Under the pieces are notes generated by a model. It saw only the letters and a program-made list of their open reading frames with translations, was not told the origin of the DNA and ran no database searches. From assembly GCA_964479005.1 (NCBI GenBank), contig CAYZJA010000001.1:224001-288000 (forward strand): a DNA stretch of 64,000 bases. Reading direction: 5' to 3'. Of the stretch, positions 6,693 through 57,684 are shown piece by piece. The DNA is from an uncultured Candidatus Saccharibacteria bacterium (GTDB lineage: Bacteria; Patescibacteriota; Minisyncoccia; UBA6257). Every line of letters begins with the position of its first letter. Position 1 is the first letter of the stretch. Made by a program: the position numbers and the translations under genes.

Positions 6693-7235
6693 TTATATCA
6701 TAGAAAATTCACACCCGCAGTATCTTTGACGATAAAGGTGATATTTTTTGGAAAGTTTTAAGCCAAGCCCGTATGCTTTATTAAAATCTATATCAAACCT
6801 TTTATATTTAATTTTATATTTATTTGCTAAAGATTTGCCATATTTATTAATAAATTCTGTATTTTTAAAGCGATTTACGTTTAAAGTAGTAGTAAATTCA
6901 TCAAAATTATTTTTTTTGGCAAATTTAACGGTTTCTTCCAAACGAAAACGAAAACAACTTAGACACCTTTCGCTGTTTTCTGAATAAAATTCAGGCAATT
7001 GAGGCAATGATTTTTTAACATAATCTAACCACTTACTGTGTTCATATCCTCCTATAATCAATTTTAACCTATAAATTTCAGATATTTTTTCCACATCTTT
7101 TAATCTTTTTTCATATTCTCCTTGAGGATAAATATTAGGATTATAAAAATACAAAGTAATATCTTTTACTTTTTCTCTTAATAAATATTCAATTATTGGC
7201 AATGCGCACACAGCGCAACAAGTATGAAGAAGCAT
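6693..7235 (-). CDS. queH: Epoxyqueuosine reductase QueH (DUF208)
   Basis: The N-terminal LLHTCCAVC and C-terminal YCGCEFS motifs are characteristic of QueH. The gene is adjacent to tgt and queA. Confidence 0.85.
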   Translation of the reverse strand: MLLHTCCAVCALPIIEYLLREKVKDITLYFYNPNIYPQGEYEKRLKDVEKISEIYRLKLIIGGYEHSKWLDYVKKSLPQLPEFYSENSERCLSCFRFRLEETVKFAKKNNFDEFTTTLNVNRFKNTEFINKYGKSLANKYKIKYKRFDIDFNKAYGLGLKLSKKYHLYRQRYCGCEFSMI

Positions 7236-7288
7236 AAAATCAAATTAACAATTAACACAGAACAATTAATAATTAATTAAGCAATAAT

Positions 7289-7357
7289 AAGGCGAGAAGA
7301 TGTTGTTGAAAAAACGATAACGATTAGCGTGTTTTTGAGATAATATCTTCTCGCCTT
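7289..7357 (-). ncRNA. Conserved hairpin element, copy 1 (variable outer stem, conserved 45-nt core)
   Basis: A 13-bp perfect outer inverted repeat (AAGGCGAGAAGAT / ATCTTCTCGCCTT) encloses the core ATGTTGTTGAAAAAACGATAACGATTAGCGTGTTTTTGAGATAATAT. A second copy lies at 34067-34134 with a different but self-complementary outer stem. Confidence 0.5.
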
Positions 7358-7359
7358 TA

Positions 7360-8481
7360 CTATCTATTTGCCATCCGTAATGTTTCTATTAGTCTCATCA
7401 TAAATCTTAAATTATGAATACTTGCTAAACGCAAATAAAGAGACTCTTTAACTGAATATAAGTGATGAAGGTAGGCTCTGGAAAAATTTTGACAAGTATA
7501 ACAATCACAGTTTTTATCAATAGGATTGTTATCATTCTCAAAGCGGTTGTTAGATATTCTTAAACATCCTTTTTCAAATTCTGACTCAAAACTATAGAGA
7601 GAACCATGCCGAGCTGTTCTTGTTGGTGCAACACAATCAAACATATCAACTCCCCTTTTTACAACTTCGATTATATCATAAGGTGAAGCGCCTAATCCCA
7701 TAGTATAGCGAGGTTTATTTTCTGGTAAAAAATCCTGCAAATAATCTAAAATCTCTAATGTTTTTGGCATATTATAACCAATTGTTTCTCCACCTAATGC
7801 GATTCCATCAAAAGGAAGACTGGTAATAAACTTGGTTGATTCTTTTCTTAAATCTTCAAAAATTCCTCCTTGAATAATTCCGAAAATCAAAGGCGGTTTT
7901 TGTCCTAAGCTTATACATTTTTTACTAAGTTCTTGATGTTTTTTTAATGACCTTTCTGCCCAGCGATGAGTTCTTTCCATTGATTTTTTCGCGTATTCTT
8001 TGTTATCAGAATCAGGACTGCATTCATCAAAAGCCATAATAATATCACAACCTAATTTATGTTGAATTTCTATTGATTTTTCAGGTGTAATTAGATGTTT
8101 TGACCCGTCAATTGGGGATGAAAATTCTACACCATTTTCACTGATTTTAGCTAACTTCTGCCCTTCTTTTGCTCTATTTTTAGCAAAGCTCCATACTTGA
8201 AACCCTCCAGAATCGCTCAGAATAGGCCCAGACCAGCCCATAAATCGATGAATGCCTCCTTGAGCATTAATTAGATCTTCCCCTGGCTGTAAGTGTAAAT
8301 GAAGCGTATTAACCAAGAGTATCTCTATACCAATTTTACTTAAATCATCAGGCCCAACTGCTTTAACAGTTGCTTGAGTTCCAGGCGGCATAAAAATTGG
8401 TGTTTTTACAATATCATGATTTGTTGATATTTCGCCCAAACGAGCTCTATCAACCTTAGATTTTTTAATAATTTTAAACAT
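7360..8481 (-). CDS. tgt: Queuine tRNA-ribosyltransferase
   Basis: The LSDSGGFQ motif and full-length similarity to Tgt are present. Confidence 0.9.
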   Translation of the reverse strand: MFKIIKKSKVDRARLGEISTNHDIVKTPIFMPPGTQATVKAVGPDDLSKIGIEILLVNTLHLHLQPGEDLINAQGGIHRFMGWSGPILSDSGGFQVWSFAKNRAKEGQKLAKISENGVEFSSPIDGSKHLITPEKSIEIQHKLGCDIIMAFDECSPDSDNKEYAKKSMERTHRWAERSLKKHQELSKKCISLGQKPPLIFGIIQGGIFEDLRKESTKFITSLPFDGIALGGETIGYNMPKTLEILDYLQDFLPENKPRYTMGLGASPYDIIEVVKRGVDMFDCVAPTRTARHGSLYSFESEFEKGCLRISNNRFENDNNPIDKNCDCYTCQNFSRAYLHHLYSVKESLYLRLASIHNLRFMMRLIETLRMANR

Positions 8482-9575: not shown

Positions 9576-10118
9576 TCACTCTTTACAACAATCCATTATA
9601 CTTTTAATAATACCGCCTAATTTGTCAAAAACATTAAATTTTTTCCCTTTTGCTATTTCAATATTATTAGTTTCTTCCTCATTTCGTTGTCTAATATCCT
9701 TTACATCTATCAAATTTAAATTTAATCCCCAAAATATATCCCAAAGCGCATAAGCCTTATCAAATAAATCTCTTGCCTCTTTTTCTTCTTTGTTTCCCAG
9801 TTTTTTAGTTCCTACTTCCATTAGCCGCATACTTGCAGATAATAGATGCTTTGAAATACACCAAATTTCTCCATCAGGATTTTTAACAATCTTTGCTAAT
9901 AGCTCTTTTCGAGAATCCCTTGTTTTATTAAGCAAGTCTAAATACTTTTTGTCTTTGGTTTTTTCATAAGTAAAAAAGAAATGTTCTTCCATGGAAATTA
10001 AATTCATAACAGCAATACCTAAATCTTCCTTAGATGATAAATCCAAAGCATTCCCTTCTTCTTTTAATTTCTTTATTTTATTAAATAAGTCTGCGACTTT
10101 TTGTTCTTCAATATTCAT
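9576..10118 (-). CDS. Hypothetical protein
   Basis: A long ORF in the minus-strand operon with no recognisable motifs. Confidence 0.5.
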   Translation of the reverse strand: MNIEEQKVADLFNKIKKLKEEGNALDLSSKEDLGIAVMNLISMEEHFFFTYEKTKDKKYLDLLNKTRDSRKELLAKIVKNPDGEIWCISKHLLSASMRLMEVGTKKLGNKEEKEARDLFDKAYALWDIFWGLNLNLIDVKDIRQRNEEETNNIEIAKGKKFNVFDKLGGIIKSIMDCCKE

Positions 10119-10143
10119 AATTTTTAATAATTAAATGCTTTAA

Positions 10144-19915: not shown

Positions 19916-20034
19916 AGATTTATTTTAACTTCTTTCGCCACGCCTAGTACCCATTGTTTATTCTACCAAAAAATCGCCTCTTTGGCGATTTCGATGTATC
20001 TCGGTCCCTCGATAAAAAAACTAGACGGCTGGGG

Positions 20035-21266: not shown

Positions 21267-21396
21267 AATTTTAATTAATTTTGTTAAATTTTTTATTTCG
21301 ACCTCATAAACATTTTAGCAAATTTTTCTTATTTTGTCATTAATATTAATTAAATAACAAATAATAACTAACAATTAAAAATATAAAATTTCTCAA

Positions 21397-21590
21397 GAAG
21401 CAAGTATTTGCTCCTGAACGACATTAGTGGAAGCAGAGATACAAACAAATGAAACGAATGATAGGGAAAGCCGAAACTGGAGCGGAGCCACGTTTGACGT
21501 GGCGGAGCGGAATTTCGGAAGGCTTCCAGAGCGAGTGAATATTGTTTGTCTCTGCTGGAATGCAGGAGAGAAGGGGGAAATACTTGCTTC
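21397..21590. repeat. F1 rod-like palindromic repeat element, copy A (~195 nt)
   Basis: The termini GAAGCAAGTATTTG and CAAATACTTGCTTC are complementary. Nested internal pairings include CTCCTG/CAGGAG and GCAGAGATACAAACAA/TTGTTTGTCTCTGC. The apex is a GCCACGT-TTG-ACGTGGC hairpin. The element is about 85 percent identical to 34154-34353. Confidence 0.6.
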
Positions 21591-34006: not shown

Positions 34007-34032
34007 ATTATTTTCATTCTCTATTTTACTCA

Positions 34033-34059
34033 TTAGCAATCAAATGTCAAGAGTGCTAA
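34033..34059 (-). promoter_or_regulatory. CIRCE operator (HrcA binding site)
   Basis: The minus strand reads TTAGCACTC-TTGACATTT-GATTGCTAA, matching the CIRCE consensus at 17 of 18 positions. Confidence 0.8.
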
Positions 34060-34066
34060 GCGAGAT

Positions 34067-34134
34067 AAAGGTTCGGAATATTGTTTCAAAAACACGCTAA
34101 TCGCTATCGTTTTTTTCCACAACATTCCGAACCT
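34067..34134 (+). ncRNA. Conserved hairpin element, copy 2 (same family as 7289-7357, opposite orientation)
   Basis: The outer stem AAGGTTCGGAAT / ATTCCGAACCTT encloses the core ATTGTTTCAAAAACACGCTAATCGCTATCGTTTTTTTCCACAACAT. This is the reverse complement of the copy-1 core with 3 or 4 substitutions. Confidence 0.5.
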
Positions 34135-34153
34135 TCTTTTATATTTATTAAGA

Positions 34154-34353
34154 AGCAAGTATTTGTTCCTGAACGACATTAATGGAAGCAGAAGTACAAA
34201 CAAATGAAACGAACGAAAAGGAAAGCCGGAACGAGCGAAGCCACGTTAGAAGTAAACTTCTAACGTGGCGAAGCGGATTCCGGAAGGCTTCCAGAGTGAG
34301 TGAATATTGTTTGTCTCTGTTGGAATGTAGGAGTGAAGGAAAAATACTTGCTG
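34154..34353. repeat. F1 rod-like palindromic repeat element, copy B, immediately upstream of corA
   Basis: The termini and nested stems match copy A. The apex hairpin is extended to CCACGTTAGAAG-TAAA-CTTCTAACGTGG. The ORF-track start of corA (MEAEVQTNE...) lies inside this element. Confidence 0.6.
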
Positions 34354-35348: not shown

Positions 35349-35402
35349 GAACCTGCCTTGTTTCACTCGGCAGAACCTTGTTTTTCACTACACTCAAAAT
35401 AA

Positions 35403-36866
35403 ATGATTTATTTTTACAATACCCTCACTAAAAAGAAGCAGGTTTTTAAACCAATAAAAAATAAGCAAGTTGGGCTTTATACTTGCGGTCCCACTGTTTA
35501 TTCAACAGCGCATATTGGGAATTTAAGAACATACATCTTTGGGGATATTTTAAAAAGAGTTTTATTGTATCAAGGGTACAAAGTTAAACACGTAATGAAC
35601 ATTACTGATGTCGGACATTTAACTTCTGACGCTGATACAGGTGAAGACAAAATAGAAAAAGCGGCAAAAAAAACAAAAAAATCCGCTTTTGAAATAGCCG
35701 AATTTTATACTAAATCTTTCTTTGTTGATTGTAAAAAATTAAACATTCTCACTCCAGATATAATAGCCAAGGCAACAGATCATATTAAAGAAGACATTGA
35801 GCTCATTAAATCTTTAGAAAAAAATAACTTCACTTATCAAACTAGTGACGGAATCTATTTTGATACTTCTAAATTGAAAGATTATGGAAAGTTAACCGGA
35901 ATGAATTTTAAAAAACTTAATAAAACATTAAAGGCTGGCGCAAGAATAGAATTATCTCCAGAGAAAAAGAATATTACTGATTTTTCCCTTTGGAAATTCT
36001 CTCCTAAAAATTCCAAAAGACAAATGGAATGGGAATCACCTTGGGGACGTGGTTTTCCAGGATGGCATATTGAATGCTCTGTCATTAATTTAAAATATTT
36101 AGGCAAAGCTTTTAAAGGAAAAAAACTTTTTCCAAAAAAAGCACAAACAATTGATATACATACTGGAGGAACAGATTTAATACCAATTCATCATACAAAT
36201 GAAATAGCCCAAGTAGAGGCTGTAACAAATAAAAAATTTGTAAATTTCTGGCTTCATGGAGAATTCCTTGTTTTAAAAGACGCACGAATGGGAAAATCTG
36301 AAAGTAATGCAATTTTAATTAAAAACATTGAAGAATCCGTTTTTTCTCCCCTAGCATTTCGTTATTTAGCTCTAAATAGCCATTACAGAACATTATTGGA
36401 ATTTTCTCAAAAAGCATTGGAAAATGCCCAAGAAAGTCTGAATAATATTCATAATTTTATTCTAGATTGCTTAATTGATAAGAAAAGAATTCAAAAAAAG
36501 AAAACGCCAACTTTTTCATTAAATCAAATCAAAAAAGAATTTGAAAAATCAATTAATGACGATCTTAATACTCCAAGGGCTTTGGCTGCTTTCTGGAAAC
36601 TAATAAAAGATTATTATCAAATTAGAAGCAATCCAAAAGAAATCTACCAAATAGCCCTGAGTTTTGATAAAGTATTAGGGTTAGGATTAGATAAAATCAA
36701 ACTCGTTATTCCGCCAAAAAAGATAAAAGAATTAGCAAAAAAAAGGGAACAATTAAGAGAAATGAGAAAATGGGCAGAAGCCGATAAAATAAGAAAAATT
36801 ATAGAAAAAGCTGGATTTTTGCTAGAAGACACAAAAAAAGGTACAATTATAAAACCAAAACTTTAA
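35403..36866 (+). CDS. cysS: Cysteine--tRNA ligase
   Basis: [12 protein letters not shown] and RMGKS motifs are present. Confidence 0.9.
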
Positions 36867-40906: not shown

Positions 40907-40920
40907 AATCTATAGCTCGT

Positions 40921-41045
40921 CTGATGGAATATTATATTAATTTATTGTTCCTCATCTGGAGGAACATTATATTAATTTATCAAAATTTGATAAATTAATT
41001 ATTATTCCTCGTCCGGAGGAATATTATAATAATTTATTAAAAATT
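40921..41045. repeat. Intergenic tandem repeats (about 35-40 bp) with a hairpin and a 20-bp palindrome, between ftsI and murF
   Basis: Three degenerate units each end in ATTATATTAATTTAT. Two contain a TTCCTC-N5-GAGGAA hairpin. A central near-perfect palindrome TTATCAAAATTTGATAA is also present. Confidence 0.5.
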
Positions 41046-42780
41046 GTTCAACTTCTCTAAAAGCTAAAGTTACTGTATAACTAGCAGCTTCTTTGCCCCA
41101 TTGTGGTCTATCCATTTTTACTAAAACAATATATTTGGGATTTGAAGCTGGAAAGAACCCCACAAAGGTGTGAATAACATCATCAGAATACCCTTTTTTA
41201 TCTTTTAGAGCCACAAAAGAAGTCCCTGTCTTGCCAGCAAGGCTATAGCCTTTAACTTTAGCATTCCCACCAAAACCATTTTCAATTACTCCGATTAACA
41301 TTGAGGTTAAGGTTTCTGCGGTTTCCTGTTTTATTACTTGAGGAAAATCTGATAAAGATTCAGTTAACATTAGAGTAGTGCGATTACCGGCTTTGTCTCT
41401 TGTACTTTCCACTAAATATGGAGTAACTAAATGTCCTTTATTCGCTATTGCCGTATAAGCTTTAAGTAATTCCATAGGCGTAACAGATATTCCAACTCCA
41501 TAAGAAGCAGTTGCAGAATATGTGGGATTGGATTTTGGATATTCTAAATTAGATAAATCACCACTGACTTCTAAAGGTAAATCTATTCCCGTTGTATCTG
41601 CAAAACCAAATTTTTTAAAATATTTTCTTAAATTCTCACTTCCTACTTTCTCAGATACAAAAATTGCTCCGGTATTTATAGAACGCTCTAAAACATCGCG
41701 CATTGTAGACTTTCCATGAACTTCATTTCGATAATTAGTCAAATGAAAACCACCCACTTCATAATACCCTTTATCAATATAAGTAGTATCTGGAGTAACT
41801 TTATCAATATCAAGACCAACTGCCATAGTAAAAGGTTTTATCACTGAGCCAGGTTCGTATCTTTCTTCTGTAGCAAAATTTCTAAAAATTGAATAATTCT
41901 CTATATCAGAAAAATCATTAAGATTAAATGTTGGTATATTGGCTAACGCTAAAATTCTTCCTGTTTTTACTTCCATTACAATAATTGTACCTTTACTTGC
42001 TTCCCTGTACTTTATCAAATCCTCCAAAATTCTGTCAGTAGCAAATTGAATATTTTTATCTATAGTGGTTTCAATTGAAAGTCCTTGAATAGTTTTTTCT
42101 TCTTCAGAAAAGTTGGAACGAACTAAACGCCCCAAGGCATCTTTAATGCCCATAAAAATGCCTTTCTTGCCAGAAAGAATAGTATCATAATAAGATTCCA
42201 ATCCATAACGCCCTTTAATTAATCCGTCGTCCGTCTCTCCTACAAATCCAATTACTTGGGCAGCAGAAGAACCTAATGGATAATAGCGATAACTCTCCTC
42301 TTCAAGATAAATACCTTTTATCTGCGCGTTCTGAATATTATCAATCAAATCATCGTCTTCAATTTTTTTAAGAAGTGGCTCATATGGATCATCTGCTTTA
42401 TTTAAACGTGAAAATATCTGCTCATAAGACAAAGGAATTATTTTTGATAAAAGCTCACTTGCTTCTTCTGGGTTTTCTATTTCTTTTGGAATGGCGTAAA
42501 GAGAATCATATTTTTTATTAATGGCAACAGGAATATATTCCTTATTTTTATCCTGAAAATAAATTAAACCCCTATTAGGGGGTAAAATTGTAGTTGTATC
42601 ATGAAGAGCTTCTGCCTGATTTACAAACTTTAAATTCTCTTTTACCTGAATGTTATAAAGCCGATAACCTAAAAATAGAAAAAGAATAATAAATAAAAAA
42701 TGAATAACGGAAATTTTTCCTTGAAAAGATTGGCTATTTCTACGAGTCCTTTTAAAAAAATTCTTATTTTTTCTTCTCAT
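41002..42780 (-). CDS. ftsI: Peptidoglycan D,D-transpeptidase (FtsI/PBP2 class B PBP)
   Basis: An N-terminal TM helix and the motifs SVIKPF (SxxK), SIN (SxN) and KTGT are present. Confidence 0.9.
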   Translation of the reverse strand: MRRKNKNFFKRTRRNSQSFQGKISVIHFLFIILFLFLGYRLYNIQVKENLKFVNQAEALHDTTTILPPNRGLIYFQDKNKEYIPVAINKKYDSLYAIPKEIENPEEASELLSKIIPLSYEQIFSRLNKADDPYEPLLKKIEDDDLIDNIQNAQIKGIYLEEESYRYYPLGSSAAQVIGFVGETDDGLIKGRYGLESYYDTILSGKKGIFMGIKDALGRLVRSNFSEEEKTIQGLSIETTIDKNIQFATDRILEDLIKYREASKGTIIVMEVKTGRILALANIPTFNLNDFSDIENYSIFRNFATEERYEPGSVIKPFTMAVGLDIDKVTPDTTYIDKGYYEVGGFHLTNYRNEVHGKSTMRDVLERSINTGAIFVSEKVGSENLRKYFKKFGFADTTGIDLPLEVSGDLSNLEYPKSNPTYSATASYGVGISVTPMELLKAYTAIANKGHLVTPYLVESTRDKAGNRTTLMLTESLSDFPQVIKQETAETLTSMLIGVIENGFGGNAKVKGYSLAGKTGTSFVALKDKKGYSDDVIHTFVGFFPASNPKYIVLVKMDRPQWGKEAASYTVTLAFREVEQFLINYYNIPPDEE

Positions 42781-42839
42781 AGAAAACTTATTATGAGTAA
42801 AACGAATAACAAGGTTCTGCGAGCAAAGCGAGTAGGTTC

Positions 42840-53772: not shown

Positions 53773-53790
53773 ATTATTTGTATTCTATCA

Positions 53791-53816
53791 AAAAATCGCC
53801 TTTAAGGCGATTTTTG
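53791..53816 (-). terminator. Terminator-like palindrome overlapping a downstream TGATAGAAT promoter
   Basis: An AAAAATCGCC-TTTAA-GGCGATTTTT perfect palindrome sits between relE-like and UDG-like genes. Confidence 0.5.
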
Positions 53817-53833
53817 TTAACTTGAGTTACTAT

Positions 53834-57034: not shown

Positions 57035-57565
57035 TCAATTTAAAATTTGTCCTAAACCTTTCCAGGCTTTCAGTAAAAAATTAATTAATCCTAAATAATA
57101 TTCACTCAAAAGAAAACCAAAAAGAACACTGAGAATTGCGACTTTAATTATTAAGTGAATATTCTTAAGTTCTTGCTCTTGTTTTTCTGTCTTATATCCT
57201 CTTTTTTTATAATCAAATAACTCCGGCTTCACTTTTAACATTAGTCCGTAAATTTTTTCAAATTCTTCTTCTATCCAGTTAAACCTATCAATATCTTTCT
57301 GCACTTCTCCAAAATCAGGTATAGCTACTGAATGTTTAGTTATTTTTTCCACTAATTCCTGGTCAATAAGAAACTTAACTGTATAAACAACATCCTCTAA
57401 TGGCTCTAACGAATTTTTATTATATTTGTGAAGAGGAAGTCCCTCTTTTAATTCTTTTTCTACAAAATAATTTAAACCTTCTTCATTCAATAAACGATAA
57501 ACAAGGGCTTCTCTTTTTTCTAATAATAAATTAATAAAATCTTCGTTTATCTTCATATTATCCAT
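57035..57565 (-). CDS. Hypothetical protein with a C-terminal TM anchor
   Basis: The start ATG is directly abutted by a GGTAGAAT extended -10-like motif. Confidence 0.5.
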   Translation of the reverse strand: MDNMKINEDFINLLLEKREALVYRLLNEEGLNYFVEKELKEGLPLHKYNKNSLEPLEDVVYTVKFLIDQELVEKITKHSVAIPDFGEVQKDIDRFNWIEEEFEKIYGLMLKVKPELFDYKKRGYKTEKQEQELKNIHLIIKVAILSVLFGFLLSEYYLGLINFLLKAWKGLGQILN

Positions 57566-57684
57566 ATTCTACCAAAAAACCGCCTCTTTTACGAGACGAT
57601 TCTTCTTAAAAAAATCCGCTCTGGGAACTGGACGATGTTAGAACCTGTTTTGGATAATAAAAATCTACAACATATAGTAAATCT

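Follow-up and report, generated by a model that had tools for sequence, protein, structure and literature searches.

What does a long, stable hairpin do between two genes that, in close relatives, all but touch? The question is raised by positions 7289-7357 of the stretch of DNA analysed here (64,000 nucleotides of contig CAYZJA010000001.1, hereafter the window), where an imperfect palindrome separates tgt, encoding queuine tRNA-ribosyltransferase, from queH, encoding epoxyqueuosine reductase. A sequence-only reading had matched this palindrome to a second one near hrcA and grouped the two as a hairpin family, F2, with a conserved core and covarying outer stems. The family proved to be real: 26 distinct copies, after removal of duplicates, were recovered from many Paceibacteria-type contigs. 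F2 is very probably a dispersed hairpin repeat that is maintained by selection. We propose, at a probability of roughly 0.4, the wider reading that this repeat, resembling repetitive extragenic palindromes (REP) and miniature inverted-repeat transposable elements (MITEs), is carried as RNA on transcripts running opposite to the neighbouring genes and serves there as a polar barrier.

The F2 family and its fold

Copy 1 occupies 7289-7357, 2 nt from the stop codon of tgt (7360-8481, minus strand, PF01702) and 53 nt upstream of the ATG of queH, the downstream gene (6693-7235, minus strand, PF02677), with the coordinates and flanks first assigned to it. Its core-sense strand is the plus strand, antisense to both genes, and folds as RNA at -34.0 kcal/mol against -25.4 kcal/mol for the minus strand. 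The 5' arm AAGGCGAGAAGAT (7289-7301) pairs with the 3' arm ATCTTCTCGCCTT (7345-7357) to form an outer stem of arm type B, the variable and covarying part of the family. Within these arms lies the conserved apex (7302-7344). Its middle stem pairs 7302-7307 with 7339-7344 and includes G.U pairs; a tandem G.A/A.G joins 7308-7309 to 7337-7338, the A/U inner stem pairs 7310-7316 with 7330-7336, and the loop spans 7317-7329 and includes CGATAA CGATTAG CG. Between the hairpin and the queH ATG is an AT-rich tail (7236-7288, minus strand) that is missing in the empty allele described below and includes TGTTAATTGTTAATTT, with the 12-mer at 7246-7257.

Copy 2 is found as the reverse complement at 34068-34135, one base away from the interval originally proposed for it (34067-34134). 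Its flanks are as described: the CIRCE site of hrcA on one side and, on the other, the F1 repeat upstream of corA, a distinct palindromic element of ~200 nt (34143-34339, plus strand) that abuts the hairpin and is absent at the same junction in the relative L012. The core-sense strand of copy 2 is the minus strand and points at CIRCE and the hrcA promoter, the flanking genes being divergent; the adjoining CIRCE operator (34024-34050, minus strand) has an embedded hrcA promoter-like site, TTGACA-16-TAAAAT. Copy 2 carries arms of type A, AAGGTTCGGAAT/ATTCCGAACCTT. Six positions distinguish AAGGCGAGAAGAT from AAGGTTCGGAAT and the outer stem of each copy is perfectly complementary, so the claim that the stems differ yet remain self-complementary holds. 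The 45-nt core said to be common to both does describe their apex, but its consensus misses a 1-nt indel in the A-run, which is 6 nt long in copy 1 and 7 nt in copy 2. The two copies form the longest inverted repeat of the window (38 nt, 92% complementary), a 29-nt core pattern has two exact matches in the 64 kb against 0.00 expected from 100 shuffles, and the fold z-scores against dinucleotide shuffles are -7.0 for copy 1 and -6.8 for copy 2. Neither nhmmer --max nor a covariance model detected a third copy in the window.

Exact scans with the apex pattern returned six loci from species-representative genomes, five of them genuine, and 26 loci from metagenome contigs. Three further loop-variant copies, each with one substitution in the search pattern, were found by nhmmer within loci already known. 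About 20 of the loci recovered are independent; the near-identical contigs L001-L006 show no variation and are uninformative. A match in a Lachnospiraceae contig (L009) lacks the arms and is attributed to chance, as is the sole IMG/VR match (L044), which falls inside a patatin-like open reading frame (ORF) with dissimilar flanks. Since INPHARED blastn gave only sub-significant partial matches and the IMG/VR match is attributed to chance, a phage or viral origin was rejected. Several F2-bearing contigs, L007 (JAFCDK010000060.1) and L008, L010, L011 and L012, bear the public labels 'Pacearchaeota archaeon' and 'Candidatus Saccharibacteria'; they are probably mis-binned or mislabelled, as their genes and the names of Tgt homologues point to Paceibacteria. 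The window itself belongs to a metagenome contig of 551,616 bp, whose organism is assigned by named Tgt homologues to the Paceibacteria/Parcubacteria.

At gathering thresholds, Rfam matched only the LOOT RNA and two tRNAs in the whole window and left F2 unmatched. For 7200-7450 at E ≤ 10, the best matches reached 13-22 bits against cut-offs of 40-100 and came from generic long-hairpin models of small nucleolar RNAs and microRNAs. The LOOT RNA (RF03000; 59856-59970, minus strand) scores 72 bits, well over its gathering threshold.

All 26 copies were aligned with a covariance model built from four gap-free copies. F2 is an imperfect palindrome of ~68 nt (66-71 nt) with a helix of 26-30 bp and a nearly invariant apex of ~45 nt. 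From the outside inward it comprises a 12-14-bp outer stem of variable sequence, a 6-bp middle stem with G.U pairs followed by a tandem G.A/A.G, an A/U inner stem (5-7 bp) interrupted by a bulged G, and an 11-13-nt loop with CGATAG-CGATTAG-CG. The feet share only 4-5 terminal bases, AAAGG/CCTTT. Three arm sub-types each occur at several unrelated loci: type A, GGTTCGGAAT; type B, GGCGAGRAGAT; and type C, GGCGAAGGTGG paired with CCACCTGAGCC, which holds a second tandem G.A.

The arms vary in sequence while their pairing persists. Standard pairs fill 94.2% of paired cells, compared with 82.0% in shuffles and 46-57% under sliding of the 3' partner. Changes on both sides are seen in 16 of 26 pairs, compared with 9.3 in shuffles; none of 500 shuffles reached the observed value on any pairing measure, bearing in mind that the 26 sequences are related and their alignment was fitted to the model. 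Between the orthologous copies L013 and L027, the sole differences are two fully compensated pairs. The proposal that the stems covary is upheld against both controls.

The pairing is also specific to one strand. The core-sense strand folds better as RNA in all 26 copies (mean -29.9 against -21.3 kcal/mol). Its helices contain 67 G.U pairs against three A.C mismatches, together with 46 G.A or A.G cells; on the opposite strand each G.U becomes A.C and each G.A a pyrimidine-pyrimidine mismatch. Counted by column, G.U occurs in ~14 columns and A.C in at most three. Recent differences between orthologues follow the same pattern, with U-A changed to U.G between copy 1 and its L017 counterpart and likewise between L020 and L033. 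The asymmetry shrinks, but persists, under DNA energy parameters (-19 and -20.6 against -16.7 kcal/mol). By its compensatory changes beyond controls and its strand-specific pairing signature, F2 has the marks of a structured RNA element under selection.

Orientation, insertion and conservation of the copies

At all nine independent loci where F2 lies between co-directional genes, the core-sense strand is antisense to both neighbours (two-sided sign test, p ~0.004). These loci are tgt>queH, rpmJ>rpsM, rpoC>clpB, rplX>rplE, transketolase (tkt)>pfkB, response regulator>pilin, khpA>trmD, metallo-beta-lactamase (MBL)-fold>gyrA and rpmG>tRNA-Trp; ten flanking genes have Pfam support, the others being read from the sequence. 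The gap from the upstream stop codon to F2 is mostly -3 to 22 nt, with 38 and 63 nt at two loci, and the next start codon or tRNA follows after roughly 30-200 nt, an AT-rich tail typically filling the interval from the hairpin to the start codon. Besides the nine co-directional contexts, seven are divergent and one convergent, a distribution opposite to that of terminator-like or REP-like elements. Ribosomal-protein and other operons hold several copies, in L008 with just 28 nt from the hairpin to the rpsM ATG, so sense transcription must read through there. The two window copies have opposite orientations yet fall within a single monotonic regime of cumulative GC skew. A replication-linked orientation is therefore ruled out, and orientation follows transcription units.

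Copy 1 had been suggested to act as an attenuator between tgt and queH, and comparison of this junction among relatives does not bear that out. In L039, the closest relative of the window along the whole region (Tgt 93.8% identical), the junction is empty and reads TAA-t-ATG; it is also empty in L042 (Tgt 79.6%), where stop and start codons overlap. In L017 (Tgt 87.8%) the junction holds F2, its arms the same as in the window and its tail related. L040 and L041 (Tgt 90.0% and 86.2%) carry an unrelated palindromic insert that is F1-like, and L043 (Tgt 77.7%) carries another, different insert. Because tgt and queH work without F2 in relatives, F2 is not an ancestral attenuator of their operon, and the foldable strand kept by selection is in any case antisense to both genes. 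Copy 1 would instead be an insertion into a junction that is tight in relatives (1-nt gap or overlap), although the polarity may be either a gain of F2 in the window or its precise loss in L039. Mosaic recombination of the 3' end of tgt from an L017-like donor is unsupported, since L039 is closest along the whole region.

A second filled/empty comparison comes from L017, which has another F2 copy upstream of a 180-aa ORF (window 9576-10118); the window (near 10118-10160) and L039 are empty there. In both comparisons the indel comprises the whole hairpin with its outer arms and an AT-rich tail of ~30-55 nt. As the empty sites have no hairpin, the arms belong to the F2 element rather than to pre-existing terminators, and insertion of a core into terminator stems already in place is ruled out. 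No clear target-site duplication is visible in either comparison (window with L039; L017 with the window), where the AT-rich flanks align ambiguously. In its presence/absence polymorphism and its many unrelated sites, F2 behaves as a dispersed mobile repeat.

Copies have also recombined. Hybrids whose 5' and 3' arms are of different types occur in L012/L036, L018/L024 and L038, and at the hrcA-corA junction of L012 the F2 core is inverted relative to the window and F1 is missing. Some of these hybrid or rearranged copies may be assembly chimeras, but two such junctions recur in separate assemblies.

In three of four orthologous pairs the hairpin is much better conserved than the 4-fold sites of the adjacent gene: 91.4% against 63% for copy 1 and L017, 94.2% against 80% for L013 and L027, and 97.1% against 58% for L020 and L033. 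The gap is small for L007 and L030 (95.8% against 92.5%). The arms stay locus-specific, so this conservation is not simple overwriting from a master copy; it would reflect either purifying selection or another homogenising force that respects the arms.

The AT-rich tail has recurrent motifs of its own. The 12-mer TGTTAATTGTTA adjoins F2 at five independent loci, against an estimated ~0.5 occurrences expected in all sequence examined. It stands 9-16 nt from the downstream ATG at most of the five, at no fixed distance from the hairpin, and related motifs precede other genes in both orientations where F2 is absent (L040:1679; window 24696). Ahead of queH, TGtTAATTT is followed by 6 nt and the ATG, and TGTTAATTGTTAATTT would suit a leaderless queH mRNA as an extended -10 element. 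A Shine-Dalgarno-like motif precedes only six of 47 confident window genes, and many gene starts in the window have TAnnnT boxes 5-8 nt before the ATG. This pattern suggests that leaderless or Shine-Dalgarno-independent initiation may be widespread in this genome.

Other intergenic elements were also noted. F1 is a MITE-like imperfect palindrome over its whole ~200-nt length with the terminal inverted repeat GAAGCAAGTATTT/AAATACTTGCTTC. Besides the copy beside F2 copy 2 there is one at 21388-21574, a partial inverted piece at 11602-11637, and F1-like elements at L040:5144-5261 and L041:5183-5324. Its plus strand folds at -72 kcal/mol and its minus strand at -61 kcal/mol, and at 21388 the plus strand is antisense to the flanking genes. 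In L032, ~40-85 nt downstream of F2 in the gene sense, the first 30 nt of F1 are fused to an orphan type-A 3' arm of F2, ATTCCGAACCTTT, in what looks like a deletion scar between adjacent repeats. The intergenic motif (A)ACAAGGTTCT(G/T), which often occurs in duplicate shortly ahead of a promoter-like TTGACA, is present at 723-765, 35371-35413 and 42779-42820 and near F2 in L007, L018 and L023. Between F2 and a divergent MgtC-like gene, L013:1448-1500 holds TTGACG-17-TATCAT on the plus strand and TTGATT-17-TATGAT on the minus strand with overlapping -10 boxes, a candidate bidirectional promoter. A further element, D7 (40911-41038), consists of three tandem ~36-nt units between two minus-strand genes, each a short hairpin followed by TATATTAATTTATT.

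Possible roles of the hairpin

We propose that F2 is a repeat restricted to a clade of Paceibacteria, within the Candidate Phyla Radiation (CPR), with several copies per genome at unrelated intergenic sites. The hairpin would work as RNA, on transcripts running counter to the upstream gene or, where the neighbours are divergent, heading toward the neighbour's promoter. There it would act as a polar barrier or processing site, keeping transcription begun in the AT-rich region ahead of the downstream gene out of the neighbouring unit. The sense mRNA would carry a weaker hairpin, making read-through possible. This antisense-barrier mechanism is put forward tentatively, on the grounds that F2 folds on one strand, is oriented antisense, sits at the edge of the upstream gene, appears to be under purifying selection and must allow sense read-through.

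Several points weigh against this proposal. The invariance of the apex is partly a matter of ascertainment, as the scans used the apex pattern, though three copies found independently of it differ by one base and are otherwise essentially identical. Many G.U cells are inherited from few ancestral positions, so that the column contrast is significant but not overwhelming. Compensated arm changes could come from template-switch correction of DNA palindromes, and the mismatched hybrid arms that persist in L012, L018 and L038 argue that a perfect stem is not essential everywhere. The 70-nt tail shows no enrichment of sigma-70-like promoters in either direction (mean best scores of 7.3 and 7.3, against 7.7 in shuffles), although promoter scans carry little information in DNA of 30% GC; neither a dedicated promoter for a hairpin RNA nor a canonical -35/-10 arrangement in the tail is supported. 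The mean number of T in the 10 nt after F2 is 5.1 in the core sense and 5.8 in the gene sense, and a T-run of at least four follows in six and 11 of 26 copies, respectively. F2 would thus be a poor intrinsic terminator, and a slightly better one in the sense direction. The family, its structure, its strand asymmetry and orientation rule, its insertion polymorphism and its conservation are shown, whereas an RNA form of the folded strand, its transcription and the barrier function are inferred.

An alternative that we regard as possible, though improbable, is that F2 is a purely selfish non-autonomous mobile element of the REP/RAYT, IS200/IS605-PATE or another MITE type, with no host function. 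A transposase-like protein encoded elsewhere would recognise the apical hairpin on one DNA strand, and the orientation bias would be survivorship, insertions that place a strong hairpin in mRNA having been lost. Much of the record fits: presence or absence differs between close relatives at two sites, arm types A, B and C recur at unrelated loci, hybrid arms and deletion scars reveal recombination between copies, and the same junctions are colonised by other palindromic, F1-like repeats. IS200/IS605 and RAYT single-strand DNA transposases recognise folds of one strand that contain G.T pairs and bulges, and the F2 fold, whose asymmetry survives in weaker form with DNA parameters, would suit them. 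What this account handles poorly is the resident copies, which outconserve 4-fold sites while keeping locus-specific arms and so point to selection at each locus rather than refreshment from a master copy. Nor were a clear target-site duplication, long conserved terminal repeats (beyond AAAGG/CCTTT) or a REP-type GTAG seen. The folded strand of copy 1 lies on the leading-strand template, opposite to the IS200/IS605 rule, and the two window copies disagree with any rule based on replication. No partner gene was noticed, the window proteins not having been screened for one.

It is unlikely that F2 acts in the sense mRNA, as a terminator, attenuator, 3'-end stabiliser, or ribosome-stalling or processing signal behind the stop codon, with the tail restarting the downstream gene. 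F2 does abut or overlap the upstream stop codon at most co-directional sites, and REP elements no more than 15 nt from a stop codon lower expression of the upstream gene in E. coli. In copy 1 the sense-strand hairpin still reaches -25.4 kcal/mol with a perfect 13-bp outer stem, the conserved TGTTAATTGTTAATTT stands 6 nt before the queH ATG, and sense-direction tails are slightly richer in U. Selection nevertheless keeps the pairs of the opposite strand only (67 G.U against three A.C, with the tandem G.A read as C.U on the mRNA), and seven copies lie between divergent genes, where no mRNA of a neighbour is expected. Within ribosomal-protein operons, at most 28 nt from the next ATG, termination would be harmful, and the empty tgt/queH junction of the closest relative shows the pathway to be independent of F2. 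Ordinary terminators of this genome also look quite different: they have short GC stems and a T6 run, as the sequence-only reading had anticipated in setting F2 apart from simple terminators, and a terminator scan reported neither strand of either window copy. With U-tracts weak in both directions, a canonical terminator identity was rejected.

The D2 family illustrates terminators of the ordinary sort. At 17709-17751, 19959-20001, 53781-53823 and 57565-57607, a canonical GC-stem terminator with a T6 run is followed without a gap by TGGTAGAAT, which is extended -10-like, and an ATG, in what looks like a compact terminator-promoter-start arrangement.

That F2 is a multicopy small RNA gene antisense to its neighbours, with the tail as a 5' seed region and the hairpin as a 3' terminator or stability module, is very unlikely. 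The order of tail, hairpin and UUU on the core-sense strand is the usual layout of a small RNA, the tails have sub-family motifs in common, and the best promoter-like match pointing at the hairpin in a 6-kb scan, TTAACA-17-AATAAT (7245-7273), ends 15 nt before copy 1. The 20 loci, however, show neither promoter enrichment nor a fixed distance from promoter to hairpin; the spacing kept by the tail motif is that to the downstream ATG, the tails are otherwise poorly conserved between paralogues, and the U-tract is weak.

Least probable of all is a double-stranded DNA site (an operator, a partition or structuring site, or a recombinase target) with incidental hairpin potential. The apex does hold an inverted repeat, TTGTTKMGAAAAC, around tandem CGATAG/CGATTAG, and a recombinase acting in the core would yield both the hybrid arms and the opposite orientations of the core with respect to hrcA in the window and L012. 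One-strand tolerance of G.U and covarying outer stems are left unexplained, however, ordinary homologous recombination between 45-70-bp repeats accounts for the hybrids, no recombinase or consistent neighbouring gene was seen at F2 loci, and parS, DnaA-box and attC consensus sequences compared by eye do not fit. Individual resemblances were likewise dismissed by eye: a parS half-site (TGTTTCA), attC R boxes, a DnaA-box-like TTTTCCACA confined to copy 2, a six-codon mini-ORF (MLLKKR) missing from most copies, and a weak internal promoter-like TTGTTG-16-TAGCGT with six of 12 matches.

Significance and relation to known systems

Little is known of the non-coding DNA of CPR bacteria, whose genomes are tiny and tightly packed, and a search of the literature for intergenic palindromic repeats in CPR found nothing relevant. 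In one clade of Paceibacteria, intergenic junctions, even the tight joint of tgt and queH, have been colonised repeatedly by small palindromic modules, and one such family, F2, nonetheless appears to be kept by purifying selection and is strictly oriented with respect to genes. It is a speculative thought that AT-rich Paceibacteria, with possibly leaderless mRNAs, partition their transcription units by a portable hairpin that is kept by selection, spreads like a mobile element and is carried in RNA antisense to its neighbours, working as a polar insulator, or a hairpin recognised by a protein, that would halt divergent or spurious antisense transcription and let operon mRNA pass. If so, F2 would represent a class of regulatory repeat, specific in its orientation, with no described counterpart in any bacterium, and the antisense strand would provide a concrete way of testing how AT-rich genomes keep spurious transcription in check. 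If F2 is instead selfish, it would be a new small mobile repeat pointing to an uncharacterised mobilising enzyme in CPR. In practice, F2 and F1 mark hot spots of recombination and assembly breaks in metagenome-assembled genomes of this clade, and annotation should mask or model both.

Intrinsic and bidirectional terminators resemble F2 in having a stable hairpin with A-rich and T-rich flanks (AAAGG...CCTTT) at gene ends. They typically have a GC stem of 5-14 bp, a small loop and at least five T in 8 nt, and are enriched between convergent genes and avoided between divergent ones; F2 differs in both shape and context. Its helix of 26-30 bp carries an 11-13-nt loop and is followed by only 2-4 T, against stems of 6-15 bp and a T6 run in the same genome, and its apex sequence is conserved across species and found between divergent genes. 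Integron attC sites are likewise imperfect palindromes that act as one folded strand and conserve structure above sequence. They keep their outer R''/R' boxes (RYYYAAC/GTTRRRY) and vary in the centre, whereas F2 does the reverse, and F2 is solitary between housekeeping genes rather than part of a cassette array, with no integrase nearby.

Closer likenesses are found among whole-length intergenic hairpin repeats with presence/absence polymorphism between strains, such as Correia elements (NEMIS) of Neisseria, enterobacterial ERIC/IRU, pneumococcal RUP and BOX, and SMAG of Stenotrophomonas. Correia and ERIC elements have orientation-dependent effects on neighbouring transcripts. Elements of this group have conserved terminal inverted repeats, with a TA target duplication in Correia, whereas F2 keeps only AAAGG/CCTTT, varies its arms with compensation around a conserved centre and shows no clear target duplication. 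MITEs are defined by conserved terminal inverted repeats that match those of an autonomous insertion sequence (IS); arm types A, B and C of F2 differ from one another, and no partner IS was seen in the sequence examined.

REP/BIME elements of Enterobacteria and Pseudomonas, which are associated with RAYT, resemble F2 in position and behaviour: they are short intergenic imperfect palindromes, often just past stop codons, that keep pairing with wobbles or mismatches on one strand, are dispersed and vertically persistent, and can influence neighbouring mRNA. Their signature is a palindrome of 20-40 nt with a GTAG-type 5' foot. At 66-71 nt (~68 nt, about twice as long), F2 has feet of AAAGG/CCTTT, alignments without GTAG and, in place of that 5' motif, a long conserved apex. 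Its copies are solitary, at ~1 per 30-100 kb of sequence examined, rather than in their hundreds or in inverted pairs, and are frequent between divergent genes; no RAYT was noticed in the 64 kb covered of the ~552-kb contig or in the short loci of relatives, the window proteins not having been screened for PF01797. Whether the core belongs to a known repeat, as the sequence-only reading had asked, thus has a divided answer: F2 is a dispersed repeat with presence/absence polymorphism, and its kind is known from REP, ERIC, Correia and RUP, but the family itself is undescribed in the libraries searched. Within that kind, F2 is set apart by a conserved centre flanked by covarying arms that are free in sequence, by its strict antisense orientation, and by its frequent placement between divergent genes.

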